Positions 5,094 to 61,864 of a stretch of DNA of 64,000 bases are shown piece after piece (within the stretch, counting starts at the first letter, position 1; every line of letters starts with the position of its first letter). A program made the translations under genes and the position numbers. The notes under the pieces were generated by a model. The model was given only the letters and a program-made list of their open reading frames with translations. It did not search any database and was not told the origin of the DNA. This DNA comes from Campylobacterales bacterium (lineage in GTDB: Bacteria; Campylobacterota; Campylobacteria; Campylobacterales; UBA6016), in contig JBFWKW010000007.1 in assembly GCA_050252455.1 (NCBI GenBank), positions 296 to 64,295 on the forward strand, read 5' to 3'.

Positions 5094-6788
5094 CTAAAAC
5101 TTTGCCCCGATGCTAAAAAGTAAACCATGATATTCTTTTGTATACACTCTCATGAATCCAATGTTAGAAAAATGATAAACCACATAAAGCTCTTTTGCTT
5201 CTCGCTTTTGTTTGTTAATGTATGCAACGTTATTTCTAGTTTCAAACCCTATGTGTACTTTATCTGAATGCCAGTGCGATATACCGTATATTAAGTCCAT
5301 ATTGGCTGAGCTTTCTATGGGCTGCACCGAGATATAGCCCAAAATGTAAGCTTTTATATCATTGTATTCAAATGTCTTCCCGATTCCAAAGCCGGCATTT
5401 GGTGTTAGTTTGTCATTTTTTAGCGGTCTGTCATATGCAATATTTATTTTCCAAGATGGCTGATTGTGGAATGGCAGGTATGCAGAAATAGACTCTATCT
5501 CGGCGATATTAATCTTTTCAATCTTTGTGTCGACATCCTTTCTTGATAACTCTGTTTCAAAGAATTTTAGACTTGCTTCATTAATTTCACTTGTTTTGTC
5601 CAGTTTTTTATCTAAAAGATAGGGTTGTATATTTATGCTGCCTCCATTTTTTTGGAGGTATTTTGTAAATTCAATTTTTGAGCTTCCATTTGTGTGATTG
5701 CTTTCATGGGCTTCTATGGATGGCGTTTTGTATATTGATGATTTAGTTTCTGAAAAGTCTGATTTTGAATAACCGTATTTTTTGAATAAAATATCATAGT
5801 AGCCATTCAACAGATACAGATATTTGTCTCTAGTGTCCGATGAAATACCGATTTGCTCATTTAGGAAATCTATCGGTCGCTCACTTTTAACAATATCTGA
5901 GAATAGATTTTTATCTTTGCTATTTAGGCTTTTGTAAACTAGATACATTTTATTTATCTGCGGCTCTCTCTTTTGTATGTTTGTTACAATATTTTTTTCA
6001 TGTATAGCGTCAAGCACCCTGAATGGAGCGACAATGCCAGTGTGTGTTTTGGTTAATTGAAGTGATGGTCTGGCTATATCCAAAAACCACAATACTTCAT
6101 AGGCACAATTTTCGGTAAAAAATTTATAGGGTACATTAATCCCAAACATTTCATACATATGAAGCTTTATAGTATCTACTTCATCAGAATTTAGATTAAG
6201 TTTATACTCCGTTAATGCTCTTTGTTCTATGTTTCCGTAGTTTTCTATTATTTTAAAATATTGATTGGCTACATATTTGCCCGTAAAGCCACCGGTGATT
6301 CCTTTTGTTAGCAGTTGTATAAAGCCCGTTTTTTGCGGTATCTCTGCGGCATAACCTATTGTTTGAGAGAACATATTGTTTTTATTGTCAATTTTTATAA
6401 AAATATGACCAAAATATGATATTGGTGATTCTAAATACGACGATGCAAAAACAACACTAGATTCATCCCCATTGCTGCTTGCCAAAAATGCATTTAAATC
6501 ATCACAGTGCTTGAAAGATATATTTAAATCAAGTTTTTTCTTTAGAAATTTATATCTTGCCGGGTATTTACATATTGTTTCGCATGCTTTATTTGTTTTT
6601 AGCGCTTGAATATGGGCGGCATATTCACTCTCGGCTGTTCTCTCGTGCGATAAAAAAAAATGCTCATCCTGAATTTCAGATATATTATTTTTAATGTGTA
6701 GCAATGCTAGCCATTGCGGGTCATCATCGTATTTTTTTGCATGCAGTAAATATGTGAATAGTAAAAGTGAAATCAGTATTTTTAGCAA
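5094..6788 (-). CDS. Exported DUF4105-like (Lnb N-terminal domain-like) protein with beta-barrel-like C-terminus
   Basis: It has a signal peptide (MLKILISLLLFTYLLHA). A conserved-looking His (FGHIFIKID) and Cys (FFTENCAYEVLWFLD) are arranged as I recall for DUF4105. The C-terminal third is beta-rich and ends ..LFSIGAKF with a terminal Phe, an OMP-like signature. The family assignment is from memory. Confidence 0.55.
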   Translation of the reverse strand: MLKILISLLLFTYLLHAKKYDDDPQWLALLHIKNNISEIQDEHFFLSHERTAESEYAAHIQALKTNKACETICKYPARYKFLKKKLDLNISFKHCDDLNAFLASSNGDESSVVFASSYLESPISYFGHIFIKIDNKNNMFSQTIGYAAEIPQKTGFIQLLTKGITGGFTGKYVANQYFKIIENYGNIEQRALTEYKLNLNSDEVDTIKLHMYEMFGINVPYKFFTENCAYEVLWFLDIARPSLQLTKTHTGIVAPFRVLDAIHEKNIVTNIQKREPQINKMYLVYKSLNSKDKNLFSDIVKSERPIDFLNEQIGISSDTRDKYLYLLNGYYDILFKKYGYSKSDFSETKSSIYKTPSIEAHESNHTNGSSKIEFTKYLQKNGGSINIQPYLLDKKLDKTSEINEASLKFFETELSRKDVDTKIEKINIAEIESISAYLPFHNQPSWKINIAYDRPLKNDKLTPNAGFGIGKTFEYNDIKAYILGYISVQPIESSANMDLIYGISHWHSDKVHIGFETRNNVAYINKQKREAKELYVVYHFSNIGFMRVYTKEYHGLLFSIGAKF

Positions 6789-9665: not shown

Positions 9666-10559
9666 ATGATAGAAGTAGCGATAATAGGCCCAACGGCTTC
9701 GGGCAAAAGTGAAGCGGCGATTAATCTAGCCCAAAAGTACGGCGCATATATACTCTCTTTGGATTCGCTATCTGTTTACAAAGAAGTCGATATAGCCAGT
9801 GCAAAGCCGTCAAAAAATGATTTATTGTGCGTGCGACACTTTGGGATTGATATGATATATCCGGATGAAGCGTTTAATGCCGCTATGTTTATGGATGAAT
9901 ATGAGAGGGCAAAAAGCGAAGCTTTGGAGCACGGCAAAAATCTTGTTATAGTCGGTGGAAGTTCCTTTTATCTCAAGGCAATGATGGATGGGCTAACTGA
10001 TATGCCGCCAATATCGGAGGCATCTAGGCAAAAGGCCAATAGCGTCGTATCGCAAAACACCCTTGAGGCATACGAATATCTTGTATCGATAGACCAAGGC
10101 TATGCCTCCAACATAAAAAGTTCGGACGGATATCGTATCGGCAGGGGGCTTGAGATGTTCTTTGAGTTTGGCAAGCCGCCTAGCGAACTATTTGCTTCGT
10201 TGCCAAAAAAGGCTGTGGCGGAGGGGCTAAAAGTATATGAAATTACCGTTGACAGAGATGTTTTGAGAGCCAGAATAGCCCTTAGAACGGCCAAGATGTT
10301 TGAACTAGGTATCGTCGAGGAGGCTGAATATCTGCTCTCCAGATACGGCAGGGAGACTAAGCCGATGGGTTCGATAGGGCTCAAAGAGACCCTTTCGTAT
10401 ATAGATGGCGATATAAGCAGACAAACGTGCGAAGAGCTTATAAATATACACACCTCTCAGCTGGCAAAAAGACAATCTACGTTCAATAAAACACAGCTAT
10501 CCGCCATATTCCGCGGCGAAAAAGACGATGTTTACAGGGAGCTACAAAAACTATTTTAA
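9666..10559 (+). CDS. miaA: tRNA dimethylallyltransferase
   Basis: P-loop IIGPTASGKS is present. Length (297 aa) and overall pattern are typical of MiaA. Confidence 0.9.
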   Translation: MIEVAIIGPTASGKSEAAINLAQKYGAYILSLDSLSVYKEVDIASAKPSKNDLLCVRHFGIDMIYPDEAFNAAMFMDEYERAKSEALEHGKNLVIVGGSSFYLKAMMDGLTDMPPISEASRQKANSVVSQNTLEAYEYLVSIDQGYASNIKSSDGYRIGRGLEMFFEFGKPPSELFASLPKKAVAEGLKVYEITVDRDVLRARIALRTAKMFELGIVEEAEYLLSRYGRETKPMGSIGLKETLSYIDGDISRQTCEELINIHTSQLAKRQSTFNKTQLSAIFRGEKDDVYRELQKLF

Positions 10560-12908
10560 GATATCAAGAGAGTCTTTGCAGAGCCTTCTCCATGAAGAGT
10601 CTGTTTTGACTTTTACGCACTCCTCAACCGCTTTTTTTGCTGCGGCTTTATCGCCGGAGGCCGTATGGTTGGATGATATCTCAAACAGCGCTCTAGCTCT
10701 GTCATTGTCCGACATTTTGTGACTCAATGCGCTTTGCAACACGGACGCCGCTTTTTTGTGGTTGCCGCCTTTTGATAAGGCTCCGGCGTAGTTAAATTCT
10801 ATCCACGGACTCTCTACAAAAACTTTAATTTGATTTTGCAGGCTATATAGCTTTTCGGAATATTTGAGATTGCCGAGCATATCGTTTCGGCTGATTGCAT
10901 ATCTGACGGCATTTTTGTACGCCGTAATGCTTTTTGGATCCCTTGGATATTTGGCTTCTATGGTCGCTATTGCGTCCGCCATTAGATTTGGGTCTTTAAA
11001 TTCAAGCGCCAATGAAGCCGCGTCAAAAGCTACGGAGCTATAAGCATCCGTTTTATATATTTTTGAGAGCGATACGATGTCTTTGGCTGCCCCATACGCA
11101 TCCCTTGTTTTACCGCTTCTGAGCGCAGATTGCTCAAACTTGTAAAGCCACGGTAGTTTTGCGTTTAGGTCTTTGACGGCTAGATTTTTCTTGGCTAGCT
11201 CATACGCTTTTTGCATCTCTCCGACAGCCATATAGCAGTCAAATAGCTTCGGCTCCTCGCTTGCCAGCGGAGTTATCCGTTTTTTTGCCAGCAACGATAG
11301 GGCTTCTTTGCACTCGTTTGACGAGAGTTTTGCCGCAAATAGCTCTTTTTCGCTTTTGATTATATAGCCTGCGGCTTCGGTTGCCAGCTCTTTTGATAGA
11401 CCCGTTGTTTTTGGCTCCATACCCAATACATCAGCATATCTCTTGGCTGCAACTAGCGATTTCATGGCTTTAACAAGGGCTTTTTGTCCGACCTGCTCTT
11501 TTGGATATTTGGAGGCTATTTTTAGTAAATCATCCGTTCCCATATCCTGTTTTGTGCCGAAGTTTAGCTTGTCCAGTTTTGCTTCGATTAGGTGGGCAAA
11601 TCTCCCTTTCGGGTATTCCGAAAGATATCTTTTGTAATTGGCTTTTGCTTTTTCGGCGTCTCCAAGCGCAGCCGCCCAGTCCCCCAGGTCGCCCAGAAGG
11701 GCTTCGTAACTTTCGCTTTTTTTGTTTAGTTTTGGCAACGTAGTTTCGCCGACCTCTATAGCCTGACTAAAGATAAATGCTCCGGCTAGCTTTTTTGCAA
11801 ACGCATAAGCCTTTTCCGGGTCTTTTGTGATAAAGCCCATATTTCCTTTGAGGATTTTGCCGTAGTACTCTTTTGCATTATCCGTATCGCCCATTGACAA
11901 ATAAGTGTCTGCCGCCTTGAATGCCGCTATCGACGCCGTCTCTATATTTTTGGTTTCAAATAGGGCTCTTTTGTATAAATCGACGGCTCTTTTGCCCTTG
12001 GAGAATCTCAGGGAGTCGCCATAATCTATCATTGCCTGTTTTGATATCTCGCTAAACGAGTAGTCGCTCGCGATTCTCTCGAAGTAGTAGTCTGCATTTT
12101 TGAAATCTTGATTGTGCGCATAGGCGTTCATGAGTGCCAGCAAAGCCTCCGGAGCCTTCTCATCGGCAGGGAAGTTTTTGAGCCAGTTTCTGCCCAGCTC
12201 TATCGCTGCGGTATTGTTGCTAGCTCCACCCATGGCAACCAACGATTTAATGCGTATTAGCTCATATTCGGAAAAGAATATGGATTTTAGGTATGTTTTT
12301 TGAGCTTTCTCGGCAAATGTTTGAGCGCTCTTGTAGTCGCCTTTTTCGTACATTTTTTTGACTGCGTTGAATTCCGCTATGTCTTGTAGGGAGTTTGTAT
12401 CATTTATCGGCAGTCCGTCAATATCCAGGGTTTTGATATATACATAAGGGTCGCTTCCGACCGATACGGGGAAGTTCAGTCCTGGATTTCTCTTTGGCGT
12501 GACAAATTTGAGCTCTTTTTCGTAAGCCACTATGACAAACTTTTTTGCCCGTTTTTCAAGCCCGGCTTTTTTCTCGTATTGCCCTTTTGGGTCGAAGTTT
12601 TGAGAAAATATTTCAGATTTTGTTTTGGATGTTATTGAGAGCTTATATTTGCCCTCTATGTAAGGTTTGACGTTAAAAAACTCACTCTCAAACCCCTTAA
12701 AAGCTACTTTCGGTGGGGTGGAAAATTCGCATATATAGCTATTTTTTGGTGCTTCGTCGGCCTCGTTTTTGAAGCATACGAAAGGCTCGGTACTCTCCAA
12801 ATTTAAAACGGAATATTTATCGTTTTTGCTTTTGCCGAGCTTGACCTCTATGTCGACGGCAAATAGCAATGGAGTTAAAAGCGAAAGTAAAGTCAGTTTT
12901 TTAAGCAT
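10551..12908 (-). CDS. Large periplasmic TPR-repeat protein
   Basis: It has a signal peptide followed by many TPR-like A/Y/L-rich helical repeats (e.g. YKSAQTFAEKA, NADYYFERIA, DTDNAKEYYGKIL). 785 aa. Confidence 0.8.
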   Translation of the reverse strand: MLKKLTLLSLLTPLLFAVDIEVKLGKSKNDKYSVLNLESTEPFVCFKNEADEAPKNSYICEFSTPPKVAFKGFESEFFNVKPYIEGKYKLSITSKTKSEIFSQNFDPKGQYEKKAGLEKRAKKFVIVAYEKELKFVTPKRNPGLNFPVSVGSDPYVYIKTLDIDGLPINDTNSLQDIAEFNAVKKMYEKGDYKSAQTFAEKAQKTYLKSIFFSEYELIRIKSLVAMGGASNNTAAIELGRNWLKNFPADEKAPEALLALMNAYAHNQDFKNADYYFERIASDYSFSEISKQAMIDYGDSLRFSKGKRAVDLYKRALFETKNIETASIAAFKAADTYLSMGDTDNAKEYYGKILKGNMGFITKDPEKAYAFAKKLAGAFIFSQAIEVGETTLPKLNKKSESYEALLGDLGDWAAALGDAEKAKANYKRYLSEYPKGRFAHLIEAKLDKLNFGTKQDMGTDDLLKIASKYPKEQVGQKALVKAMKSLVAAKRYADVLGMEPKTTGLSKELATEAAGYIIKSEKELFAAKLSSNECKEALSLLAKKRITPLASEEPKLFDCYMAVGEMQKAYELAKKNLAVKDLNAKLPWLYKFEQSALRSGKTRDAYGAAKDIVSLSKIYKTDAYSSVAFDAASLALEFKDPNLMADAIATIEAKYPRDPKSITAYKNAVRYAISRNDMLGNLKYSEKLYSLQNQIKVFVESPWIEFNYAGALSKGGNHKKAASVLQSALSHKMSDNDRARALFEISSNHTASGDKAAAKKAVEECVKVKTDSSWRRLCKDSLDILK

Positions 12909-12998: not shown

Positions 12999-13241
12999 TT
13001 AATACGCTTCTTTCCTATGCTTGATATTTACAACTATCAAAACATCATCTTCGACATCAAACAGAACTCTATAATCGCCTATTCTGTATCTGAGCGGCGG
13101 ATAGTGATTTTTGAGTTTTTTGATATTTGTTAGATTTGGATAGTTTTCTAGATTTTTGATGTGTAGTAGTATGTTTGTAGCTATACTTTTATCAATCTTT
13201 TTGAGGTCTTTTAAGGCGCTTTCTTGAACCTTGACGGTCAT
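12999..13241 (-). CDS. relE: RelE/ParE-family type II toxin
   Basis: 80 aa with the C-terminal pattern YRIGDYRVLFDVEDDVLIVVNIKHRKEAY. It overlaps the upstream antitoxin ORF by 4 nt. Confidence 0.8.
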   Translation of the reverse strand: MTVKVQESALKDLKKIDKSIATNILLHIKNLENYPNLTNIKKLKNHYPPLRYRIGDYRVLFDVEDDVLIVVNIKHRKEAY

Positions 13242-13459
13242 TTGAGCTCTTTTGCTATCTCATCTAGCGAATAGCACTTCTCGCCACCCTCTCGTCTTGC
13301 TCTAGCATCGGCGATAAAACCATAATCTGCGTCGGTAGGCTCTATCGCTTCTATATTTTTGTCAATAGTGCTTACTACTTTTACATCGTCCTTCAGGTGA
13401 TCCAAAAAGTAGATAATCTTGTCAAATGCGCTATCTTTGATATCTAGCGTAAGCGTCAT
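13238..13459 (-). CDS. Type II antitoxin partner of RelE
   Basis: A small acidic protein immediately upstream of, and overlapping, the toxin. I chose ATG 13459 (MTLTLDIK) because AAAGGG lies 6 nt upstream. The ORF-track start at 13489 is the alternative. Confidence 0.65.
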   Translation of the reverse strand: MTLTLDIKDSAFDKIIYFLDHLKDDVKVVSTIDKNIEAIEPTDADYGFIADARARREGGEKCYSLDEIAKELK

Positions 13460-13590
13460 CTCAAACCCTTTCAAAGAATTATTTCGCAAATTATATCACA
13501 AAAGCACGGGGCGGCTATTTTTCTTTTCACCCTCTTTTGAATGCTTAGAAAGTGAAGATTGAATACCTGACACCTTTATTTAACCATGTA

Positions 13591-25800: not shown

Positions 25801-25822
25801 GCTAAAGCCCAAGGGCTTTAGC
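25801..25822. terminator. Bidirectional hairpin between convergent aroE and the small lipoprotein gene
   Basis: Perfect inverted repeat GCTAAAGCCC-AA-GGGCTTTAGC, directly between the two stop codons (25798 and 25831). Confidence 0.5.
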
Positions 25823-25830
25823 GAGGGTTG

Positions 25831-26013
25831 TTAGTGGCTTTTGTTAGCTTCAGTAGCGTTAGCTTCAGTAGCGTTAGCTTCTACAACTGGTGCAGTTACG
25901 TTAGCTTCTACAGTAGCGTTAGCTTCAGTTACGTTAGCTTCTTCAGCTTTTTTTGAACAACCAGAGAATGCAAGACCTGCGATTACAAGAGCAGCAACTA
26001 GAACTTTTTTCAT
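25831..26013 (-). CDS. 60-aa lipoprotein made of repeated E-A-N-x-T/S units (poly-sequon peptide)
   Basis: It has a signal peptide plus the lipobox AFSGC. AAGGAAAAC lies upstream of the ATG. The mature part is SKKAEEANVTEANATVEANVTAPVVEANATEANATEANKSH. Confidence 0.6.
   Translation of the reverse strand: MKKVLVAALVIAGLAFSGCSKKAEEANVTEANATVEANVTAPVVEANATEANATEANKSH
25843..25941. repeat. Imperfect tandem repeat, six copies of GTTAGCTTC core (coding E-A-N on the minus strand)
   Basis: Core copies start at 25843, 25858, 25873, 25900, 25918 and 25933 (spacings 15, 15, 27, 18, 15 nt), all inside the small lipoprotein ORF. Confidence 0.9.
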
Positions 26014-26388
26014 TTTGTTTTCCTTATTTTAAATTGAACGGGCGTACCCGCAAAAAACCCTTAATATAAAGGGACCTACGACTGCAGCCGGATTTGCCTG
26101 AATTTTGCTACATACTTTTTACAGATAAGTGACAAAATCCAAAAAAATCTTCAAAATTTTAAAGAGCCGTACAATTTAAGCTAAGCTTAAGATTTATGAA
26201 AAACCCCTATTTTATAAGGCTTCAGCATAAAATCGTAACACAGCTAAATCAAAGCCGCAATTATACAACACAATAACTTTAAAAAAGCCTTAAATTATTT
26301 AATTTTTGCAGTTCATTTTTAATATTTTCTTGCGCAACAAAAATACCCCTAATATGCATCTTGTTTATAAAAACTCTTACCTACTTTT

Positions 26389-31949: not shown

Positions 31950-33760
31950 ATAAATACCCCATTATTTTTAGCAATAAGTGATGCGACGAATTCGTTTACG
32001 CCCATCTCATATTGTCTTTTTTCACGCCTATCTCTAAGCGCCACCTTATTTTCGGCTACTTCCTGATCGCCTATAACGGCAATTAAAGGTACCCTCTCTT
32101 TTTCTGCGTTTCTGATTTTCTTGCCAAGGCTATCGTTTTTATCAAAAACCTTTGCAGAAATATCGGCTCTTATTAGCTCTTTTTGAATTTTTTTGGCAAA
32201 TTCTACGTGAGCATCGCCGATTGGAACCAAAATCACTTGCGTTGGAGCTATAAAGAAAGGAAACTCTCCGCCAAAATGCTCTGTCAAAATAGCAATAAAT
32301 CTCTCAAATGAGCCTATGATAGCTCTGTGAATCATTACCGGGCGAACTCTTTGGTTGTTGTCATCCGTATAGTTGATGTCAAATCTATCCGGTAGGTTTA
32401 GGTCTACTTGAATAGTTCCGCATTGCCATTTTCTGCCGATGCAGTCTGTTATTTTGACGTCTATTTTTGGACCGTAGAAAGCGCCGCCGCCTTCATCTAT
32501 ATCATATTTCATTCCCTTTTCGTCAAGGGCGTCTGCGATAGCTTTTGTGGCCTTGTCCCAAAACTCGTCGGAGCCTATTGCTTTTTGAGGTTTTGTTGCA
32601 AGCTCTATTGAGTAGTTGAAATCAAAAGCTTTCATTATAGAGTCGACAAAATCCATAACTTCGTATATCTCTGATTTTATCTGAGCTTCTGTACAAAATA
32701 TATGCGCGTCATCTTGTGTAAACTCTCTAACTCTCAATAATCCGTGAAGTACGCCGCTTTTTTCGTGTCTATGGACTACGCCAAATTCAAAGAATTTAAG
32801 AGGCAACTCTTTGTGCCCTCTTGTCTCGGAGTCAAAAATCTTGATATGGCTTAGACAGTTCATCGGTTTGATACCGTATTCGGCCTCTTCTATGTTCGTA
32901 AAGTACATATTTTGGCCGTAATTTTGGTAGTGACCGCTTTTTTTCCAAAGGTCGGATTTGAGTATTTCGGGCCCTCTTACCGGTTCATAGCCTCTTACTA
33001 GGTGGGCATGATAAAGAAGCTTCTCTAGTTTCCCTCGTAGCCTTGCTCCAGCAGGAAGCCATATAGGCATACCGCTACCGATGTCTTCGTCAAATGCAAA
33101 AAGCCCTAGCTCGTGACCTACTTTTCTGTGATCTCTCTTTTTCGCCTCTTCAAGCATTGTTACATAGTTTTTTAGCGTCTCTTTGTCGGCAAATGCTATA
33201 CCATATATACGAGTAAGCATCTCTTTTGTTTCATCGCCGCCTAGATATGCGCCTGCAACTCTAATTAGCTTGAAATTTTTTAGATATTTAGTGTTTGGCA
33301 CATGAGGGCCGCGGCATAAGTCTTCAAAGCCGCCTTGCGCATATATTCCGATTTCGTCAGAGTCTATTTTTTTTAGAACTTCTTGTTTTAGTTCGTCGTT
33401 TTCAAATTTTTTAAGAGCTTCGGCTTTGGTTATAGTGTATTTAGTTATCTCGTTTGCCTTGTCGGCTAGCTCTTTCATTTTCTTTTCGATAGCCGATAGT
33501 TCTTCTTCGCCTATCTTTGCGCTGGTTTTGAAGTCATAGTAAAAACCCTCGTCAACCGTCGGCCCGACAAAAAACTTTGCATCCGGATAAAGCTCTTTTA
33601 TTGCTTCAGCCATAAGGTGGGCGGTTGAGTGTCTGATGATTTCCAATGATTCTTTTGAGTTGTCAAATTGTATTGCTTGCAGATTTTGTAGGTCAGCTGA
33701 CGCTGCGCTTTGAGTATCTATGATTTGATCCTCTAGCTTATAGCCAAGTATATCTTTCAA
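31946..33760 (-). CDS. thrS: Threonine--tRNA ligase
   Basis: It has a TGS/editing N-terminus ([10 protein letters not shown]) and class II core motifs ([11 protein letters not shown]). 604 aa. Confidence 0.95.
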
Positions 33761-33788
33761 TTATTGCCTTGTGGGATTGTATTTAAAA

Positions 33789-33864
33789 TGGTGGCCCCGA
33801 TTGGACTCGAACCAACGACCACTACCATGTCAAGGTAGTGCTCTACCAACTGAGCTACGGGACC
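33789..33864 (-). tRNA. tRNA-Val (anticodon GAC)
   Basis: The reverse complement folds by hand as GGTCCCG-TA-GCTC-AGTTGGTA-GAGC-A-CTACC-TTGACAT-GGTAG-TGGTC-GTTGG-TTCGAGT-CCAAT-CGGGGCC-A-CCA. That is 76 nt with an encoded CCA and the TTCGA T-loop. Confidence 0.9.
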
Positions 33865-33896: not shown

Positions 33897-34331
33897 TTAT
33901 TTCTTCTTTAAAAGCTTTATTATGAGTAGCCCCACCCCTATGTCTATGAGCACGTCAGCCAAGTTGAAAACGGCAAATTCAAACCAATGGTGGTAATAAA
34001 TATAGTCGACAACGCCGCCGTGAATAAATCTATCGTATATGTTTGAAGCGCCGGAGCCGAATATTAGCCCTAGCTCTAACGGATATTTTTTTAGGTAGCC
34101 GTTTGACGAGACATAGATGAGCGCAAAAAATAATACCGCTATTTGCAGATACTTTAAGTAGCCCTGCAAGAATGAGAGCATGCTAAACGCTACCCCGTCG
34201 TTTAAAACATAGATGATAGAAACATAGTCGCTGTACCATCTATAACCGTCTAAAATAATTGATTTTACATATTGGTCTGCTGCTATTGCCAGTACGGCAA
34301 CAAGCATAAAAAAGGCTATTTTTTTAAGCAT
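33897..34331 (-). CDS. lspA: Lipoprotein signal peptidase II
   Basis: Four TMs with the motifs LNDGVAFS and [11 protein letters not shown]. Confidence 0.85.
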
Positions 34332-39467: not shown

Positions 39468-39530
39468 CGGTGCAATTTGGGCTTGCCTATGTTTTTACAA
39501 AAAATGCAAGCTACGAGAGGCACAAAGTAT

Positions 39531-41630
39531 ATGGAATTCAAAAATGTTTTGGACATTGCTACAAAGCAAATAACTTCGGTTAGCAGAAAAGATACGCTTA
39601 TTAAAGCGGCCGAATTGATGATTCAGAACAATTTGAGAAACGTGCTTGTTGTTGACGAGGGGATAAAAGAATACGGAATTATCACCGTTACGGATATAAC
39701 CGACTTTTTGCTAAGAGGCGTATCTTTTACGGATTTGGTTGAGTCCGTTGAGTTTAAAACCGTTAAACAAATAAGCCAAGACAGCAGCGCCTTGGAAGCC
39801 TCTTTTTTGATTAGGGAAGATGTTAACTATCTTTGTGTTGTTGATGATGCCAAAAATCTTTTAGGCGTCGTATCGATGTCAAACATAATATCCGCCATAG
39901 ATACGGAGCTTGTCGTTAATGAGATTAAACTAGGCCACATAATAGGCAAGACAAAAGCTAAAACCGCAAAAACAATCGATAGCTTGACCACTGTTTTTCA
40001 TAGAGTTAATGCAACTCCGACGGAAGCGGTAGTCATAATAGACTCTCATAACGTGCCGATAGGGATAATTACAAAAAGAGATATCGTAAAACTAATTATC
40101 AAAAATACGGATATGTCGCAAGAGGTAGCCGGATTTATGCAAACTCCGCTATTTACCGTAAATGAAGAGACAACGGTAAAAGAAGCTTTGGAGCTTATGA
40201 GCAAAAAAAGGTTTAAGCGCCTAATCGTCCTTGAAAGTCACGGTGAACTTATGGGGATTATTACCCGTGAAGAGATGATGGATATCGTCTACAATAAATG
40301 GTCGCAGATAGTAAGGGAAAAAGAGAGTCAACTTCAACGTCTATCCAAAACGCTAGCCGTTAAAACCGAGGAATCAGAGAGAACTACCAGACTTCTTAAC
40401 GACTTCATAGATGCGACCGACGACTTTATATTTTATAAAGATTTGGACTATAAATATATAGGGTGCAATAAGGCATTTGCCGAGTTTGCCGGAAAAGCAA
40501 AGGAAGATATAAGCGGAAAGACCGACTTTGATTTATTTGACGATTATTATTCAAATCTTTTTAGAGATACGGATAGGGATGTTCTTGAAAAAGGCAAAAC
40601 TATTATAAATAGCTATTGGACGAGATATAGCGATAAAAAAGCAGTTTATTTGAGTGTCAAAAAAGCCCCTTTAAGAGATAAAGACGGTACCGTTATAGGG
40701 TTGGTAGGAATATCAAGAGATACTACCGAGCAAAAAAACCTTGAAGATGCCATCAAGCATCAGCACAATTATCTTCAGACGATACTTGACATGCAAGAGT
40801 CTATGCTCGTTATTACCGAAGACGGAAATACCATCATTGAGGCCAATAAGAGCTTTCTTGAGTATTACGACGTAAGAACGATAGGCGAGTTTCACTCAAA
40901 ATACAAATCTATAGCCGACCTATTTGTAAAAAAAGAGGGCTATTTATCGAGCAAAAAAAACGGTCTTTGGTTTAAACTGCTTACCTCTTCTTATGACAGA
41001 GACTTCAAGGTCATGATGCAAAAAAATAGAAGCACGGAAGAGCCAAAAAGCTTTTTGCTAAAAGTTGAGAAATTCAAAAAAGATGAATCTTATCTAGTTT
41101 CATTTTTGGATATAACCAATATTGAAAAAGAGAGTAAGAACTTAGAGATTTTGGCCACGACCGACCCTCTAACCAAAATATATAACAGAATGAAATTCGG
41201 CAATATGATGGAAGCTGAGATAGCAAGGGCTAGAAAGTCGAAAAAGCCGCTTTCTCTCGTTGCCATAGATATAGACTTTTTCAAGAAAATAAACGATACA
41301 TATGGACATCAGGCCGGTGATTATGTGCTTATAACTACCGTTGAAATAATCAAATCTAAAATTAGAAGCAACGATATTTTTGCCAGATGGGGCGGGGAAG
41401 AGTTTATGCTTTTATTGCCTGGCGCAGATATGGATGTTGCGGTAGCTAGGGCAGAGATTATCAGGGCAGCTCTTGCAGAGTATGATTTTATAGAGCCCCA
41501 AAGCGTAACAGGTAGTTTCGGCGTCGCCTGTTTTAGGGATAATGATTCGATAGATACGTTTGTCAAAAGAGCCGATGAGGCGCTGTACGCCGCAAAAAGA
41601 AACGGCAGAAATAGGGTAGAGCATAATTAG
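39531..41630 (+). CDS. CBS(x4)-PAS(x2)-GGDEF diguanylate cyclase
   Basis: It has two CBS pairs in the N-terminal ~260 aa and two PAS regions. The GGDEF domain has an intact GGEEF and an RxxD I-site (RSND, 5 residues upstream). The start is uncertain (ATG 39489, 39504 or 39531). Confidence 0.85.
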   Translation: MEFKNVLDIATKQITSVSRKDTLIKAAELMIQNNLRNVLVVDEGIKEYGIITVTDITDFLLRGVSFTDLVESVEFKTVKQISQDSSALEASFLIREDVNYLCVVDDAKNLLGVVSMSNIISAIDTELVVNEIKLGHIIGKTKAKTAKTIDSLTTVFHRVNATPTEAVVIIDSHNVPIGIITKRDIVKLIIKNTDMSQEVAGFMQTPLFTVNEETTVKEALELMSKKRFKRLIVLESHGELMGIITREEMMDIVYNKWSQIVREKESQLQRLSKTLAVKTEESERTTRLLNDFIDATDDFIFYKDLDYKYIGCNKAFAEFAGKAKEDISGKTDFDLFDDYYSNLFRDTDRDVLEKGKTIINSYWTRYSDKKAVYLSVKKAPLRDKDGTVIGLVGISRDTTEQKNLEDAIKHQHNYLQTILDMQESMLVITEDGNTIIEANKSFLEYYDVRTIGEFHSKYKSIADLFVKKEGYLSSKKNGLWFKLLTSSYDRDFKVMMQKNRSTEEPKSFLLKVEKFKKDESYLVSFLDITNIEKESKNLEILATTDPLTKIYNRMKFGNMMEAEIARARKSKKPLSLVAIDIDFFKKINDTYGHQAGDYVLITTVEIIKSKIRSNDIFARWGGEEFMLLLPGADMDVAVARAEIIRAALAEYDFIEPQSVTGSFGVACFRDNDSIDTFVKRADEALYAAKRNGRNRVEHN

Positions 41631-41651
41631 GGTTTTTGGCGGAGGTTTGGC

Positions 41652-42599
41652 TTGATAACTTATGAAGAGGTAAACGGCTCTCTTGTAAAGCTGGATGAAA
41701 ACGAGATAAAAGAGGATGCCCATCAGGTATTTATATCTACGTTAAATAAGCCCCTTCTTGTTAACTGGCTAAAAGCGGAAGAATTGCCGGAGCCTTTTTT
41801 TGAGGATATTGCCTCTTTCGAGCAGACGCCGTCGTTTGAGGATTTTAGTGAAGGTACGGTTCTTATCCTTAAATATCTCAAGCTTGAAAGAGATGAGTTT
41901 ATCGACTTCTATGAAGAGAATGTGGCTTTAATTAATCTAGGAAATAAGCTCGCGATAGTTTGCAAAGATGAGATGACCGCTTTTGATATAGAGATGAAGT
42001 TTGACAAGCGTATGCGCGGCAAAAAAACAAATCTATATTTTGAGATGTATACATTTTTGGATATTTTGACGGATCAGCAGATACAGGCGCTGGATAGTGC
42101 AAACTCCATCCTTGAGGAGCTTGAAGAGAATATTCTCTCGGAGAGCGTTGAGAGACAAGAGACGCTAAAAAATCTATATTACGCTAGACGTTCGCTAAAT
42201 AGGCTATCTCATATCTTTGTGAATGAATCGGTTGCACTTAGCCGTTTTTTCACTAGCATTACGACATCGATTAAAAAGAAATTTAGATTTGAGTTTTTGG
42301 ATCTAAAAGAGCACAAGCAAAGTCTTGTTGCCGAGTGTAAGTCGCTCCAAGACAAGACGGTCAGCCTACTAAATCTTCAGCTGGGCCTTACCGACAATAA
42401 AGCCAATGAGGCAATGCAAAAACTAGCCGGTATCTCTCTTATTTTTATACCGCTCACATTTTTTACGTCGATATTTAGTATGAATTTTGAGCATATGCCG
42501 GAGCTAAAGACTGAGCACGGGTATCATGTAATGCTTGTGATAACTTTAGCCACCGGCGTTGCAATATACTATTGGCTTAAAAAAAGGAAGTTCTTATAG
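41652..42599 (+). CDS. corA: CorA-family divalent cation transporter with SMN instead of GMN motif
   Basis: The C-terminus has two TMs, FIPLTFFTSIFSMNFEHMPEL...KKRKFL. TTG start after GGCGGAGG. Confidence 0.8.
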   Translation: MITYEEVNGSLVKLDENEIKEDAHQVFISTLNKPLLVNWLKAEELPEPFFEDIASFEQTPSFEDFSEGTVLILKYLKLERDEFIDFYEENVALINLGNKLAIVCKDEMTAFDIEMKFDKRMRGKKTNLYFEMYTFLDILTDQQIQALDSANSILEELEENILSESVERQETLKNLYYARRSLNRLSHIFVNESVALSRFFTSITTSIKKKFRFEFLDLKEHKQSLVAECKSLQDKTVSLLNLQLGLTDNKANEAMQKLAGISLIFIPLTFFTSIFSMNFEHMPELKTEHGYHVMLVITLATGVAIYYWLKKRKFL

Positions 42600-42998
42600 C
42601 TTTTTTGCTTTTTTGAGCGCCTCGGTTAGATAATCCATAAATTCATTCGGGTATTTAAAACCCACCGCCGTTTGGCTCACTATATTCCCTTTTTTATCAA
42701 GAAAAAACGTACTCGGCACCATCATTCTGTGGCTCAAAGGTTGCGGCATAGTGTCCGTATCTCTATTTAAAATCACATAAATAAAATCTTTGTTTATTGC
42801 CGTTTCTATTATTTTGCTTTTTAATGTTTCGGCTTCAAACTTACGACACCAAGGGCACGTACTTGATACGACCGTGGTAACAACTATTTTATTTGTTTTT
42901 GCGGCTTCCTGCATCGCCTCGTCGTATTTTTTGAATTTAATCTCCGCAAACAAAGATAGTGTAAAAAAAAGTGTAGCAACCGCTATTTTCGGTATCAT
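42594..42998 (-). CDS. Periplasmic thioredoxin-fold protein
   Basis: It has a signal peptide and a CPWC active-site motif (SSTCPWCRKFE). Confidence 0.7.
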   Translation of the reverse strand: MIPKIAVATLFFTLSLFAEIKFKKYDEAMQEAAKTNKIVVTTVVSSTCPWCRKFEAETLKSKIIETAINKDFIYVILNRDTDTMPQPLSHRMMVPSTFFLDKKGNIVSQTAVGFKYPNEFMDYLTEALKKAKKL

Positions 42999-43092
42999 AA
43001 TGCAATTCCTGCTTGAGTTTTTCTATTATTTATTGTAACATCTATGAAATTATTTTGGTGTAGCTAGAAATAGGCGTTTTATTTAACAAAAT

Positions 43093-43103
43093 TGATATAT
43101 AAT
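43093..43103 (+). promoter_or_regulatory. Candidate extended -10 promoter (TGaTATATAAT) for the small-ORF/cheY/mutS2 unit
   Basis: It lies in the AT-rich divergent spacer and overlaps the ORF-track ATG 43102, which favours the internal start 43153. Confidence 0.35.
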
Positions 43104-43152
43104 GCCGACAGTTTTTATGCATAAAAATTATACTCTTTTGGAGCGTAGCTGG

Positions 43153-43365
43153 ATGAATAAGCAAGAGAAAAACCTTATTAAGCAAGCAAGAGAAGATATG
43201 GACGAGACCGTCATATCAAATGCTTCTTTTAGAATTCAGTCTATACTTGAAGAGGTTTTCCAAAAAGGTATAGAGGTCGGCGAAACGATAGGTTATACTA
43301 AAGCAATTGTCGAGCATGCCGATTGTGCAAATATAAATATAAAACCAAAAAAGGGTTCAAAATAA
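43153..43365 (+). CDS. Small (70 aa) hypothetical protein translationally coupled to cheY
   Basis: MNKQEKNLIKQAREDMDE... begins with a GGAG 9 nt upstream. Its TAA (43363-43365) overlaps the cheY ATG (43365-43367). Confidence 0.4.
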   Translation: MNKQEKNLIKQAREDMDETVISNASFRIQSILEEVFQKGIEVGETIGYTKAIVEHADCANINIKPKKGSK

Positions 43366-43739
43366 TGAAAATACTTGTGGTAGACGATAGTTCAACAATG
43401 AGAAGAATTATAAAAAATACACTTAATCATTTGGGCTATAAGGATCTTCTTGAAGCCGAAGACGGCGCCCTTGCTTGGGAAACTATGACTCAAAACTCTG
43501 ATATAGGCGTATTGATTACAGACTGGAATATGCCGAACATGAACGGCTTGGAGCTTGTAAAAAAAGTTAGAGCAGAACAAAAATATGCAGATATGCCTAT
43601 AATCATGGTTACTACGGAGGGTGGTAAAACAGAAGTTATTACAGCCCTTAAAGCCGGTGTCAACAACTATATCGTTAAGCCTTTTACGCCTCAGGTTCTC
43701 AAAGAAAAACTAGAAGCCGTTTTAGGCATAAGCAACTAG
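43365..43739 (+). CDS. cheY: Chemotaxis response regulator CheY
   Basis: MKILVVDDSSTMRR, the phospho-Asp context LITDWNMPNMNG, VTTEG and the CheY-specific NNYIVKPF are present. 124 aa. Confidence 0.9.
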   Translation: MKILVVDDSSTMRRIIKNTLNHLGYKDLLEAEDGALAWETMTQNSDIGVLITDWNMPNMNGLELVKKVRAEQKYADMPIIMVTTEGGKTEVITALKAGVNNYIVKPFTPQVLKEKLEAVLGISN

Positions 43740-43743
43740 AATC

Positions 43744-45969
43744 TTGGCCGATAACAATGAGCTTTTAGGAAAGCTCGACCTAGAGTCTTTTTTGGGCTCT
43801 TTTTCCTCCTTTTTTGCAAGAGAGAAGCCGTTTTTTATGGACGGTGACCGCTCTTTGCATCTACGCTTTATCAAAGAACTTTCAAAATATCAGTTTGACT
43901 CTCCAAGGCCGATTAAAAACCTCGATGACGAGCTTATAAAACTCCAAAAATCCGGTATCCTGACAAAAGAGTCGCTAGGCGCATTTGCCAAGATGATATC
44001 GTATTTTGTCCGTCTTAAAAAATATAAGTTTGAAGGCGTATTGGCCGAGTGGTTATCCGGCATAGAGATATCCAAAAAAGCCATTTCTTTTTGTGATTTT
44101 TTTGAAGATAGCGGAGATTTTTGCTACGACAATCGCCCTGAGCTCCACAATGCAAAAACAAGCGTTGAAAATGCGAAAAAAAATATAACCAGAGAGCTTT
44201 CAAAATATCTACACAGCGAGAAACTTGCGCCGTATTTGGTTGATAGACAGCTGCACTATCTAGGCAAAGACGAACTGCTACTTCTTAGGGGTGGGTTTAA
44301 TGCAGTACTCAGAGGGAAGATAATATCCAGAAGTGCCGCCGGATTTTTCTATGTTTTGCCCTCGTCGGTCGATTCGCTAAAAGATGAGCTGGAAAAACGG
44401 ATATCTCATTTTGAAGAATTAGAATACGAGCTTTGCAAGGAGCTTTCAAAAATACTAGAAGAACTATTGCCGTTTTTGAAATACCTCAACAAGCAATTTG
44501 ATAGATTTGACCACTATCAGGCGAGGGTTGCTTTTGCTAGAATGGGGGATTATGAGTTTTTGGAGAGCATCGGCGGACAAAAGATAGTTCTGAAAGATTT
44601 TTATCATCCGGCGCTAGAGAAGCAAAAGGCAAAATCTTTTAATATCGCTCTTGACAAAAAAGCGCTCATCGTCACCGGCGTGAATGCCGGCGGCAAGACG
44701 ATGCTTTTAAAATCTATTCTTTCGGCTTGTTTTTTGGCTAAGTACCTAATACCTATGCATATCAATGCCTCCAAGTCGTCCGTGCCGTCTTTGCCGTCGA
44801 TAAATCTAATACTTGACGACCCGCAAAGCGTTCAAAACAACATATCTACATTTAGCGGTAGGATAAGGGCTTTTAGCCAAATTATCAATGCAAAGCCTGG
44901 AATAATAGGCGTGGATGAGATAGAGCTCGGTACCGACAGTGACGAGGCTGCGGCGCTGTTTAAGGTGGTGATAGAGGAGCTCATTGCTAGAGGGTTTTAT
45001 ATAGTTGTTACGACGCACCACAAAAAGCTTGCCTCGATGCTCGCCTCAAACGATAATGTCGAGCTTGCGGCGGCGCTGTACGATGAGGAAAAAGAACTCC
45101 CTAAATACGAGTTTTTGCAAGGGATTATCGGCAAGAGCTATGCGTTTGAGACGGCCGTCAAATACGGCATCCCTAGACACATGGTGGAAAAGGCCAAAAA
45201 AGTTTACGGAGACGACAAAGAGAGACTCTCCGAGCTAATAGATAAGGGCTACTTGCTTCAAGAGAGGCTAAACCTTGAGCTTAGAGAGATAGAGAAAGAG
45301 AAAGAGAAAATCAAGTTTGCCAAGCTAAGGCTTGAAGAGGAAAAAGAGAGAGAAGCAACCGAGTGGCAAAAGAAAAAATTTGCCCTTGAAAAATCCTATA
45401 GAGAAGCAGTCGAGCTAGCCAAGGAGGCTGCAAGAAAGAGCGATCAGGCGGAGATACACAGGGCGCTTAACGCCGCAAATGAGCGCTACAAAGAGATAAG
45501 CGAGCAGAGAAAAGAGAAACAAAAAGAGAGTTTTGCCGTCGGCGACTCGGTGTTGTATCGCGGCATGAAGGGGAATATAGAATCAATCGGTAAAGATGTG
45601 TTTATCGTTGTTGACGGCAGAAAACTGAGGGTAGATAAAAAGCAGTTTTTTGAAGAGGCAAAAAAAACTGATAAGATAAAAAAAGATAAAAAACAAGCCC
45701 CTAAAGTCAGCGTACAAAAGCCTCAAAGCGGCGGCGTAAAATTAGACTTGCATGGCTACAGGGTGGAAGAAGCCCTCGAGGAGCTTGATAAATTCATATC
45801 CGACGCGCTACTTGCCGGTTTTGAAGAGATACTCGTATATCACGGAATAGGTACAGGCAGACTCGCCGCCGCCGTAAGGGAATATCTAAAAACACACAAA
45901 GGCGTAGCATATATAGAAGACGCTCCTATGTCAATGGGCGGCTACGGTGCTACGCTCATACATCTATAA
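43744..45969 (+). CDS. mutS2: Endonuclease MutS2 (MutS ATPase domain + C-terminal Smr)
   Basis: Walker A GVNAGGKT, DEIELGTD, a Lys/Glu coiled coil and a C-terminal Smr domain (LDLHGYRVEEALEELDKFI...HGIGTGRL) are present. Confidence 0.9.
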   Translation: MADNNELLGKLDLESFLGSFSSFFAREKPFFMDGDRSLHLRFIKELSKYQFDSPRPIKNLDDELIKLQKSGILTKESLGAFAKMISYFVRLKKYKFEGVLAEWLSGIEISKKAISFCDFFEDSGDFCYDNRPELHNAKTSVENAKKNITRELSKYLHSEKLAPYLVDRQLHYLGKDELLLLRGGFNAVLRGKIISRSAAGFFYVLPSSVDSLKDELEKRISHFEELEYELCKELSKILEELLPFLKYLNKQFDRFDHYQARVAFARMGDYEFLESIGGQKIVLKDFYHPALEKQKAKSFNIALDKKALIVTGVNAGGKTMLLKSILSACFLAKYLIPMHINASKSSVPSLPSINLILDDPQSVQNNISTFSGRIRAFSQIINAKPGIIGVDEIELGTDSDEAAALFKVVIEELIARGFYIVVTTHHKKLASMLASNDNVELAAALYDEEKELPKYEFLQGIIGKSYAFETAVKYGIPRHMVEKAKKVYGDDKERLSELIDKGYLLQERLNLELREIEKEKEKIKFAKLRLEEEKEREATEWQKKKFALEKSYREAVELAKEAARKSDQAEIHRALNAANERYKEISEQRKEKQKESFAVGDSVLYRGMKGNIESIGKDVFIVVDGRKLRVDKKQFFEEAKKTDKIKKDKKQAPKVSVQKPQSGGVKLDLHGYRVEEALEELDKFISDALLAGFEEILVYHGIGTGRLAAAVREYLKTHKGVAYIEDAPMSMGGYGATLIHL

Positions 45970-46059
45970 TCCCTTTTTTGATACTGCATTAAGCCCCGCA
46001 TTGATACTATAAGTTAATTATTTGTTAAACAAAAAAGTAGTGCTTTAAGAGGAGCGAGA

Positions 46060-48048
46060 TTGGCATACGGTTTGTCAAGAGAAAGAGATCTTGTCGTTTT
46101 ATTCGTTGAGGACGAAGAGGTAATCAGAGATAGCTTCGCAAGTATGCTGAGGGCGAAGTTTGAGAACGTCCTAGTTGCGGATAATGGAGAAGATGCGCTA
46201 AAGCTCTTTGAGTCCAACAGGGTTGATATAGTCATCAGCGACATCATAATGCCAAAACTAAACGGTGTAAAACTAGCCAAAGAGATAAAAAAAATAGCAC
46301 CGTCCACTTTTGTTATGCTGGTGACGGCGAGCAACGATCATGAGTATCTTATGGAGGCGATAGAGGCCGGAGTTAATAGATTTATACTAAAGCCTCTCAA
46401 TGTAAAAAGCTTTTTTGAGGTTTTGGATGCGGTATGCAGCGAGCAGAAAATTAAAAAAGAGCTTGCCGAAAAAGACCAGCTTTTGGAGGAGTACAAAACT
46501 GCCGTCGATGCCAGCAACATCGTTTCAAAGACCGACACCAAAGGGATAATTACTTATGCAAATCAAGCCTTTTGTGACACAAGCGGTTATTCGGTTGAAG
46601 AGTTGATAGGTAAACCGCAAAACATAGTAAGACATCCCAATATGCCAAAAAGCGTATTTAAAGAGATGTGGGAGACTATCCAGTCAAAGCATATATACAA
46701 GGGCGTAGTCGAGAACAAGCGCAAGGACGGGAGTAGCTACTTTGTCGATGCAACGATAGTTCCTATTTTGGGCGTTGACGGCGAGATTATCGAATATCTG
46801 GGTATTAGACATGATATTACGGAGTTTATAAACAATAAACAAAAACTTTATACAAACGCATTGACCGGGCTTCCGAATAGATATAAGCTCTCATCTGATT
46901 TGACTGCCGGAAACGGCGGCAGTTTGGCAGTTATAAACGTAGATTCGTTCAAGATACTCAACGACTACTATGGCTCAAATATAGGGGATATGGTTCTTGT
47001 CGAGCTGGCCGGTAGATTTGTCAAAATATTCGGCTCCAATAATCTAACTGTGTATAAGCTCTCGTCCGATGAATATGGCATTTTTTGCGAAGAGTGCAAA
47101 TCCGATTTTGTAGATGAGATAACAAGGGGCGTTCATCTTGCAACGATAGATAGTATAAGATGCGGAGACGTCGATATAGTAACAAGCGTAACGGCCGGAA
47201 TAGCCGTAGGTAAAGACGGTTTGCTCGAAAAAGCCAATATGGCTCTTGGATTTGCTAAAAAATATAAAAAGCAGATATCCGTGTATGATGAGAGCATGCT
47301 AATAGGCAAAAACTATGAAAAAAACATCACAATTTCAAAAACACTCAGAGAGGCGATAGACGGAGATTGGTTTGTCCCTTATTTTCAGCCGATAGTAAAC
47401 TGCGTGACAAATGAGATAGAAAAATATGAAACATTGGTTCGTATAGTCAAGCCAAGCGGGGAGGTCCTATCGCCGATGGAGTTTCTCGATGTGGCTAAGG
47501 CTACAAGGCTATACCCGCATATCACTAGAACTATGATAGCAAAGGCTTTTGAGATATTTAAAAACAAAAAAGAGTCTTTTTCCGTCAACTTGTCGGTAGA
47601 GGATATACTAGATGAGCATACAAGGGCTTTTGTCCTTGGAATGCTTGGCGGATACGGTATATCGGATCGTGTTATATTTGAGATATTGGAGTCTGAGGGG
47701 ATAGAAAATTACGGCGATGTATCCGAGTTTCTCGCCGCAGCAAAAAAATTTGGCGTTAAAATAGCTATTGACGATTTTGGAACCGGGTATTCTAATTTTG
47801 AGCATCTTGCCAAACTGAACGTAGATATCATAAAAATAGACGGGAGTCTAATTAGAAACATAGATACGAACTCAAACTCCGAAATTATAGTAGAGACTAT
47901 AGTTAGCTTTGCAAAGAAGCTTGGAATGCAGAGCGTTGCCGAATTTGTTCATTCAAAAGAAGTGTACGATAAAATAAAAAAAATAGGAATCGACTATGCG
48001 CAGGGATATCTTTTGGGTAAGCCTGACGTATTGTCAGAGGGCAAATAA
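46060..48048 (+). CDS. REC - Aer-like PAS - degenerate GGDEF (SSDEY) - EAL protein
   Basis: The receiver has VEDEE, VISDIIMP, LVTAS and ILKP. The PAS domain has NIVRHPNMPKSVFKEMW. The GGDEF position reads KLSSDEY. The EAL domain has EILESEG, DDFGTGYSNF, KIDGSLI and QGYLLGKP. TTG start after AAGAGGAG. Confidence 0.9.
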   Translation: MAYGLSRERDLVVLFVEDEEVIRDSFASMLRAKFENVLVADNGEDALKLFESNRVDIVISDIIMPKLNGVKLAKEIKKIAPSTFVMLVTASNDHEYLMEAIEAGVNRFILKPLNVKSFFEVLDAVCSEQKIKKELAEKDQLLEEYKTAVDASNIVSKTDTKGIITYANQAFCDTSGYSVEELIGKPQNIVRHPNMPKSVFKEMWETIQSKHIYKGVVENKRKDGSSYFVDATIVPILGVDGEIIEYLGIRHDITEFINNKQKLYTNALTGLPNRYKLSSDLTAGNGGSLAVINVDSFKILNDYYGSNIGDMVLVELAGRFVKIFGSNNLTVYKLSSDEYGIFCEECKSDFVDEITRGVHLATIDSIRCGDVDIVTSVTAGIAVGKDGLLEKANMALGFAKKYKKQISVYDESMLIGKNYEKNITISKTLREAIDGDWFVPYFQPIVNCVTNEIEKYETLVRIVKPSGEVLSPMEFLDVAKATRLYPHITRTMIAKAFEIFKNKKESFSVNLSVEDILDEHTRAFVLGMLGGYGISDRVIFEILESEGIENYGDVSEFLAAAKKFGVKIAIDDFGTGYSNFEHLAKLNVDIIKIDGSLIRNIDTNSNSEIIVETIVSFAKKLGMQSVAEFVHSKEVYDKIKKIGIDYAQGYLLGKPDVLSEGK

Positions 48049-48057
48049 GGCATAGGT

Positions 48058-49710: not shown

Positions 49711-49711
49711 C

Positions 49712-60516: not shown

Positions 60517-60543
60517 TTGATAAATTACGAAGAGGAGAGGTCT

Positions 60544-61854: not shown

Positions 61855-61864
61855 GGGGAATAAG

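Follow-up and report, generated by a model that had tools for sequence, protein, structure and literature searches.

We describe a small lipoprotein gene in a stretch of Campylobacterales DNA of 64 kb (the window, by which the whole stretch analysed is meant) whose mature product consists of little else than bacterial N-glycosylation sequons. The gene is real and conserved, its product is a lipoprotein precursor of the Sec/LspA type, and the family to which it belongs is one of sulfur-oxidising Campylobacterales. Based on the residue pattern across this family, we strongly infer that these proteins are glycosylated and represent a natural poly-sequon 'glyco-tag'. The full reading, namely an abundant, lipid-anchored lipoprotein with a disordered array of PglB acceptor sites that would be N-glycosylated at multiple positions, appears probable to us on the strength of sequence data. 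The coordinates of the relevant features are collected in Table 1.

Table 1. Location of the small lipoprotein gene, its associated signals and genes of possible relevance to lipoprotein processing in the window.
Feature	Position	Strand	Basis
Lipoprotein precursor CDS, 60 aa	25831..26013	-	translation, homologues and synteny
Signal peptide and lipobox (MKK, hydrophobic core, AFSG-C, Cys19)	25957..26013	-	sequence reading; near-invariant in alignments
Array of six D/E-X-N-X-S/T sequons (E25-S59) and C-terminal His	25834..25941	-	imperfect 15/33-nt tandem repeat
Shine-Dalgarno AAGGA, 7 nt 5' of the ATG	26021..26025	-	invariant in 8/8 orthologous loci
Intrinsic terminator hairpin with T-rich tail, between the small gene and convergent aroE	25801..25822	-	stem and compensatory changes
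Conserved upstream region with TATAAT, conserved blocks and two hairpins	26014..26270	-	conserved in 8 orthologous loci
lspA (signal peptidase II)	33897..34331	-	Peptidase_A8 on a syntenic gene
Lnb_N-domain protein, possible Lnb-type lipoprotein N-acyltransferase	5094..6788	-	PF13387 (E = 5e-36), with DUF7843 and DUF7840

Translation of 25831..26013 on the minus strand yields the product MKKVLVAALVIAGLAFSGCSKKAEEANVTEANATVEANVTAPVVEANATEANATEANKSH. Its mature part contains six Asn residues (27, 32, 38, 47, 52 and 57), and every one of them lies within a Pro-free E-A-N-x-(T/S), so that the six perfect sequons listed in the initial annotation of this DNA are all found on the translation. The same annotation had placed an imperfect 15-nt tandem repeat at 25843-25941. 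This was confirmed by TRF, which detects an imperfect array (15/33 nt) spanning 25843-25946, and by the unit GTTAGCTTC, which is present in six exact copies in the 64-kb window, all of them inside 25843-25941. The chance expectation for this unit is 0.70 copies per window, and six copies were reached in none of 100 shuffles. Among 56 other proteins of the window, 19 matches to D/E-X-N-X-S/T are distributed over 19,714 aa, corresponding to a background density of about 0.96 per 1000 aa; the small lipoprotein, with six sequons in 41 aa, exceeds this background about 150-fold. Upon shuffling of the mature peptide, six sequons were obtained in 0 of 200,000 permutations, with a maximum of four.

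The signal peptide and the lipobox with Cys19 were likewise correctly recognised at the outset, as judged from the translation and from the conserved alignment. The precursor starts with MKK, followed by VLVAALVIAGLAF and SG-C, and thereby displays the basic n-region, the hydrophobic core and the Cys-terminated lipobox of a bacterial lipoprotein. A Sec-type lipoprotein signal peptide is kept in all members of the family and the Cys is invariant in the alignment; the match of the window protein to Pfam LPAM_1 is weak (E = 0.84). LspA, which is encoded in the window as well, would be the enzyme expected to cleave the precursor. As a separate observation, the Lnb_N-domain protein listed in Table 1 is a membrane protein of 564 aa and a candidate for an Lnb-type N-acyltransferase in a Campylobacterales genome.

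The mature form of the lipoprotein comprises 42 aa (4.29 kDa, pI 4.6). AF2, run on the family alignment, confines helical structure to residues 3-16; elsewhere the pLDDT is about 49 and no secondary structure is assigned, which is consistent with disorder of the sequon tail. Such disorder would count in favour of glycosylation by PglB, because PglB needs disorder in its acceptor. The combination of an export signal peptide with Pro-free sequons in a segment predicted to be flexible is the one to be expected of a PglB substrate.

Homologues of the small lipoprotein were recovered by protein search as 31 clusters of 57-70 aa, all derived from metagenome assemblies of the Campylobacterales type; longer entries result from upstream read-through. 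A scan of one genome per species gave 13 true loci and one false match, and all 13 loci belong to MAGs labelled Helicobacteraceae, Campylobacterales or Arcobacteraceae. In those window-type orthologues for which neighbours are listed, the small gene is flanked by aroE and a class-V aminotransferase gene, and the housekeeping genes on either side match those of the window. Gene callers report the same 60-aa product on 23 contigs, and the identical lipoprotein is also present in GCA_964630205.1 and in many sequencing runs.

The repeat opens reading frames on both strands, as would be seen if it were a non-coding tandem DNA repeat, or if the true gene were one of the antisense ORFs at 25828-25956 (+) and 25841-26032 (+). 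However, comparison of seven orthologues with the window over the signal-peptide region (codons 1-23) reveals 12 synonymous changes versus a single conservative one (L to I), and 12 of the 13 differences fall on codon position 3 of the minus-strand frame. Depending on the locus, 0-12 stops are encountered in the three antisense frames and 4-11 in the two remaining sense frames; none of these alternatives is open in every one of the eight loci. Only in L011 and L012 is the least interrupted antisense frame free of stops, and antisense frame 1 is interrupted at every locus. The Shine-Dalgarno sequence, the ATG and the terminator are conserved in addition, and the 60-aa product is predicted on each of the 23 contigs. 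The notion that this is not a gene at all, or a gene on the other strand, is effectively excluded by these observations and is the least probable of the readings discussed here.

A Shine-Dalgarno sequence and a hairpin terminator of its own had also been ascribed to the gene, and comparison of the orthologues bears this out: AAGGA is present in all eight loci, and the terminator stem is preserved through compensatory substitutions. Strong conservation among the eight orthologous loci extends over about 250 nt 5' of the small gene. This upstream region comprises an invariant TATAAT at 26265-26260 (-), extended blocks of conservation, among them the inverted repeat TTTTGTCAC...GCAAAA, and two hairpins just 5' of the Shine-Dalgarno sequence, one with a U-run (26073-26058) and one kept by compensatory changes (26049-26038). 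A search of the region against Rfam gave no match. Its fold z-score is -1.9 only, and the hairpins covary to some extent. Two roles are conceivable for the region, one as a long regulatory leader or attenuator, the other as a small RNA of its own.

With a CAI of 0.857, the small gene ranks highest among the 58 genes of the window; its non-repeat part alone attains 0.83, and both L20 (0.806) and L35 (0.767) lie below the small gene. Its codons are exclusively of types that are enriched in the ribosomal-protein genes of the window (AAC, GAA, ACT, GCT, GGT, AAA). Because codon adaptation tops that of all 58 genes, the small gene is probably very highly expressed.

In the 32 family members analysed, 146 of 147 Asn residues of the mature parts are located within D/E-X-N-X-S/T, and the lone exception is a C-terminal Asn. 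Position -2 of these sequons is occupied by E (136) or D (10) and by no other residue, and position +2 by T (141) or S (5), again by no other residue. Position -1 is A in 133 cases, followed by T (7), E (2), M (2), G (1) and V (1), and position +1 is shared among A (68), K (29), T (28), V (20) and S (1). Pro never appears at -1 or +1, although it accounts for 6% of the family peptides and is common in the linkers. Considering 39 distinct mature sequences, S/T is found at +2 in 176 windows of the form [DE]-x-N and is absent from 0, as compared with 14 of 100 [DE] windows without Asn that display S/T at the same place (Fisher p = 4e-57, computed on sequences that are phylogenetically non-independent). 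In the decayed repeat units EAPAA and EATVA, N and T are gone together.

Position -2, the Asn and position +2 are hence jointly constrained, with swaps only among residues that the sequon permits, and position +1 drifts; at the level of sequence, this is the signature of the PglB sequon. We strongly infer that the pattern represents the footprint expected of selection for N-glycosylation of the PglB type. The sequons are no chance product of a single repeat: their defining residues are conserved family-wide while the free positions vary. A dedicated, densely N-glycosylated peptide had been proposed in the initial annotation; that the sequons are more than a by-product of repetition is upheld by the ratio of 176 to 0 at +2, by the restriction to E and D at -2 and by the freedom at +1. 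On the other hand, Ala at -1 (133 of 146) is not required by the sequon, so that part of the conservation reflects repeat ancestry. Read in the reverse direction, the evolution of the family may provide a readout of the acceptor specificity of uncultured oligosaccharyltransferases: acidic at -2, T preferred over S, and no Pro.

Between species, the number of sequons ranges from 0 to 9. There are 4-7 in proteins of the window type, 1-3 in one subfamily, a single one in L014 and P0031, eight plus a terminal Asn in P0017, and none in L016; the linkers between sequons are rich in Ala, Pro and Val. Within the species of the window, the protein is invariant (23 contigs, many samples), so there is no sign of rapid slippage. 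The early suggestion that the repeat may allow for length variation therefore holds between species, where sequon numbers of 0-9 are realised, but not within the species of the window, where the protein is identical on 23 contigs. If the sequons are occupied, their number would tune the glycan load. The locus without sequons (L016, 3001-3216, from the MAG DYPS01) encodes a signal peptide like that of the rest of the family and a tail rich in AP, E, V and D that contains no Asn at all. Together with L014 and its single sequon, it constitutes a natural 'sequon-loss' variant. The Asn-free protein implies that the family scaffold does not depend on sequons, and, taken together with the sequon-poor subfamily, it implies that this scaffold can exist without glycosylation.

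The sequon-free protein and the sequon-poor, AP-rich members speak for a different reading, in which the small lipoprotein would be an unglycosylated, abundant, acidic protein of low complexity that serves the envelope as a spacer, a tether or a binder of cations, like Lpp/OprI, meningococcal Ag473 or PG1828 of P. gingivalis, with EANAT being merely an expanded repeat unit. The codon bias is that of a very abundant protein, the chain ends in a basic residue (K in most members, H in the window protein), and two members bear the JGI label 'murein-binding lipoprotein Lpp'. NCBIfam scores point in the same direction, with 30.4 bits for the PG1828 family (NF050142, E = 5e-7), 23.6 bits for the Ag473 family (NF047840) and 19.2 bits for the Lpp/OprI alanine-zipper family (NF040598). 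However, all of these scores remain under the respective cut-offs of 50, 100 and 43 bits, and it is the signal peptide that accounts for them: the sub-threshold matches are without exception lipoprotein families, each aligned from residue 1, and the score for PG1828 is dominated by the signal peptide because its alignment starts there. Pfam LPP yields no match, the mature part is devoid of helix in the AF2 prediction, and Pro is present in the linkers. In 9 of 32 members the chain terminates with His, so that a Lys-dependent link to murein is not conserved. Moreover, repeat expansion alone leaves unexplained why E at -2 is replaced by D only and T at +2 by S only, why position +1 is free, and why the association of Asn with S/T is 176:0. 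In view of these points, we regard the unglycosylated alternative as unlikely.

Membership in the three lipoprotein families was rejected on the basis of these scores and, in the case of Lpp/OprI, also of the missing LPP match, the missing helix and the lack of an invariant C-terminal Lys. No Pfam or NCBIfam family covering the small lipoproteins was found, and the database names of members are either hypothetical or mislabelled as Lpp.

A structural role of the motif was considered as well. The A-N-x-T-E pentamers may fold, forming a pentapeptide-repeat beta-helix or an antifreeze-like surface, and by our own comparison the five-residue periodicity A(D/N)xx(x) bears a superficial resemblance to the pentapeptide-repeat consensus. 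However, neither Pentapeptide nor any other repeat family is matched in Pfam at E <= 10, and at most three pentamers follow one another before they are interrupted by a V or AP linker. AF2 yields no strands and a pLDDT below 50, and neither the number nor the spacing of the repeats is conserved. An assignment to the pentapeptide-repeat proteins was rejected on the Pfam and AF2 results, and a folded pentapeptide-like repeat is highly improbable and effectively excluded.

Returning to glycosylation by PglB, the initial annotation had noted the existence of pglB in other epsilonproteobacteria. Such genes, encoding PglB with WWDYG, are common in related lineages: they were found in MAGs labelled Sulfurimonadaceae and in related MAGs, in Sulfurovum and in Hydrogenimonas, and a PglB homologue is present in Sulfurimonas denitrificans (PMC4894442). 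Within the 64-kb window, neither pglB nor another pgl gene was detected by a scan for WWD[YWF]G and by Pfam annotation of its 56 genes. The query for PglB was a C. jejuni sequence checked against PDB entries 5OGL and 3RCE. In a first homologue search, the best 120 matches were from Campylobacter only. A profile search identified 3,289 clusters of environmental Campylobacterota PglB at E <= 1e-50; among the best 120 of these 3,289 were Hydrogenimonas, Sulfurovum and a tight group labelled 'Sulfurimonadaceae', and none of these 120 has as its longest contig one of 2,193,480 nt or 1,001,788 nt, the lengths of the long contigs with the small-gene homologues P0001 and P0003. Representatives of PglB at 50% identity, together with a tree and the cluster names, were mostly uninformative for the genomes that carry the small gene.

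The degenerate DNA pattern EFILALPLIGIG, designed for this PglB group, matched 16 short contigs in JGI metagenomes and no long contig with the small gene. Nine PglB proteins were looked up, leading to six assemblies or samples with pgl-like loci; none of the nine shares an assembly, a sample or a contig with a known locus of the small gene. The tetranucleotide correlation of the tested PglB loci with the window amounts to 0.28-0.71, as compared with at least 0.85 for loci of the same genus. Genome GC predicted from the amino-acid composition of PglB proved too noisy for a choice of candidates.

The pgl-like loci around PglB encode glycosyltransferases, an epimerase, an initiating transferase and a PglF-like dehydratase. 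All 13 aligned PglBs from related lineages keep WWDYG, the MxxI motif and an Arg equivalent to R331 of C. lari. In structure 3RCE, R331 binds the acidic residue at -2, and its conserved equivalent matches the strict E/D at this position of the family sequons. As regards the arrangement of the loci, ilvD adjoins those of the Sulfurimonadaceae type in L021, L023, L051, L053 and L055; L059 displays the same gene order, and its contig stops before the point at which ilvD would show. Loci of the Sulfurimonadaceae type contain a Glycos_transf_4 (WecA/MraY-type) initiating enzyme and variable sets of glycosyltransferases. L057 from a low-GC lineage (P0400) has PglC-, PglE- and PglF-like genes instead, as in Campylobacter. 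Because initiating enzymes and glycosyltransferase sets differ between the loci, the glycans produced by them are probably diverse.

Based on this dataset, we propose the following mechanism. The protein would be exported and lipidated at Cys19, leaving an acidic, disordered tail of 41 residues anchored at the periplasmic face of the membrane. This tail would offer six concatenated E-A-N-x-T/S sequons for bacterial N-glycosylation, and a PglB-type oligosaccharyltransferase would move a lipid-linked oligosaccharide onto each Asn. The resulting product would be a lipid-anchored glycopeptide that is mostly glycan: assuming a glycan of Campylobacter size (1.4 kDa) at all six sites, about 8.4 kDa of sugar would be carried by a 4.3-kDa peptide, i.e. 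around two thirds of the mass. Such a molecule may act as an abundant carrier or display molecule for glycans in the envelope and provide hydration, charge or protease shielding. Concerning its final location, which may be the inner membrane, the inner leaflet of the outer membrane or the cell surface, the residue following the lipobox Cys is Ser; in E. coli this implies export to the outer membrane, a rule that may not hold for this group. The attribute 'surface-anchored', used in the initial annotation, is unsupported by any evidence.

A more far-reaching proposal is that the small lipoprotein would be the main N-glycosylation product of free-living sulfur-oxidising Campylobacterales. It would then be an extremely abundant lipoglycopeptide, glycan by two thirds of its mass, which may function as a protein-based analogue of an O-antigen or lipoglycan layer, or else store glycans in the periplasm, with copy number tuning glycan density and sequons being lost together with pglB. 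We consider this proposal conceivable and rather doubtful. If it were true, general N-glycosylation in bacteria would acquire a bulk substrate dedicated to it and, beyond pathogens, a physiological function.

Nearly all studies of bacterial N-glycosylation concern Campylobacter; its role there is still debated, and the substrates are ordinary proteins with a few sites. If a conserved and probably very abundant lipoprotein is made of hardly anything but sequons, environmental relatives would seem to use the pathway for building a specific glycoconjugate of the envelope, and a single gene would provide a direct experimental handle on the role of N-glycosylation. The known PglB N-glycoproteins of Campylobacter and Helicobacter pullorum resemble the small lipoprotein in being exported and in carrying D/E-X-N-X-S/T in flexible regions, and lipoproteins (JlpA) as well as small periplasmic proteins are found among them (PMC9816155, PMC6025236). 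In C. hepaticus, EANAT and EANTT are sequons found by experiment to be occupied, and a heptasaccharide of 1,405.56 Da is attached to EANAT (PMC9816155). In contrast to the small lipoprotein, the proteins in the glycoproteome tables are folded, 28-94 kDa in size and glycosylated at one or two sites. In the small lipoprotein, the whole mature part (41 aa) is an array of six sequons, with 0-9 in relatives. A protein search disclosed no homology to any Campylobacter protein.

Other small lipoproteins offer partial parallels. Ag473, PG1828 and Lpp/OprI are likewise very small and likely abundant, with Ala/Glu-rich mature parts of low complexity or repeated sequence, and there is weak profile similarity; they differ in having no sequon arrays, and the small lipoprotein in turn has no predicted alanine zipper or helix. 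In Neisseria, the general O-glycosylation system PglL/PglO reportedly targets lipoproteins with low-complexity regions rich in Ala, Ser and Pro (Vik et al., 2009). The likeness lies in a general system that decorates the disordered tethers of small lipoproteins; the Neisseria system differs in that the linkage is to oxygen, the enzyme and the motif are others, and there is no strict tandem of five-residue sequons.

In its design, the small lipoprotein also parallels an artificial tag, GlycTag, which consists of engineered tandem DQNAT sequons fused to recombinant proteins for glycosylation by PglB in E. coli. A four-copy version was reportedly devised by Fisher et al. in 2011. The tag is mentioned in bioRxiv 10.1101/155101. 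Both GlycTag and the small lipoprotein are short, unstructured and composed of optimal sequons placed back to back, suited to multiple glycosylation. Unlike GlycTag, the small lipoprotein is natural, lipid-anchored, based on E-A-N-x-T instead of D-Q-N-A-T, and maintained by evolution. We found no description of a natural tandem-sequon protein or of this small-lipoprotein family in the literature, in agreement with the earlier statement that no described natural protein of such design was known. PglB substrates and lipoproteins are known kinds of proteins; a mature part made up of hardly anything but a sequon array has, to our knowledge, not been described before. A single tryptic peptide of 36 residues with six glycans would escape standard proteomics, which may explain why the family, having no entry in Pfam or NCBIfam, was overlooked. 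For glycoengineering, it may supply a naturally optimised multi-site glyco-tag and a lipid-anchored carrier.

The GC content of the window is 41%, and the ATP-citrate lyase subunits aclA and aclB are encoded at 60517-63682 (+), a mark of an autotroph using the reverse TCA cycle. Taken together, ATP-citrate lyase and GC content point to a chemolithoautotrophic lineage resembling Sulfurimonadaceae and not to Helicobacter or Campylobacter proper. The presence of aclA and aclB is at odds with the label 'Helicobacter sp.' in related MAG records.

Several further observations were made in the window. A periplasmic TPR protein of 785 aa with DUF7494 (10551-12908, -) is PflA-like in size and architecture. 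PflA, a flagellar protein, is an N-glycoprotein in Campylobacter and H. pullorum; the PflA-like protein of the window contains no canonical D/E-X-N-X-S/T. Between this TPR gene and its neighbour, a recG-like helicase gene, there are two overlapping small ORFs of 80 and 83 aa (12999-13489, -) with the look of a RelE/ParE-type toxin-antitoxin pair. The interval 39477-55203 forms an unusually dense signalling block with four GGDEF/EAL proteins, several receiver domains, both stand-alone and fused, a histidine kinase with a PAS domain, and a chemoreceptor with a CZB domain. In the segments 33687-33827 (+) and 33789-33864 (-), a match to the Rfam family HPnc0260 (Helicobacter antisense RNA) with 66 bits, which is above the gathering threshold, overlaps tRNA-Val(GAC) and the beginning of thrS on the other strand.
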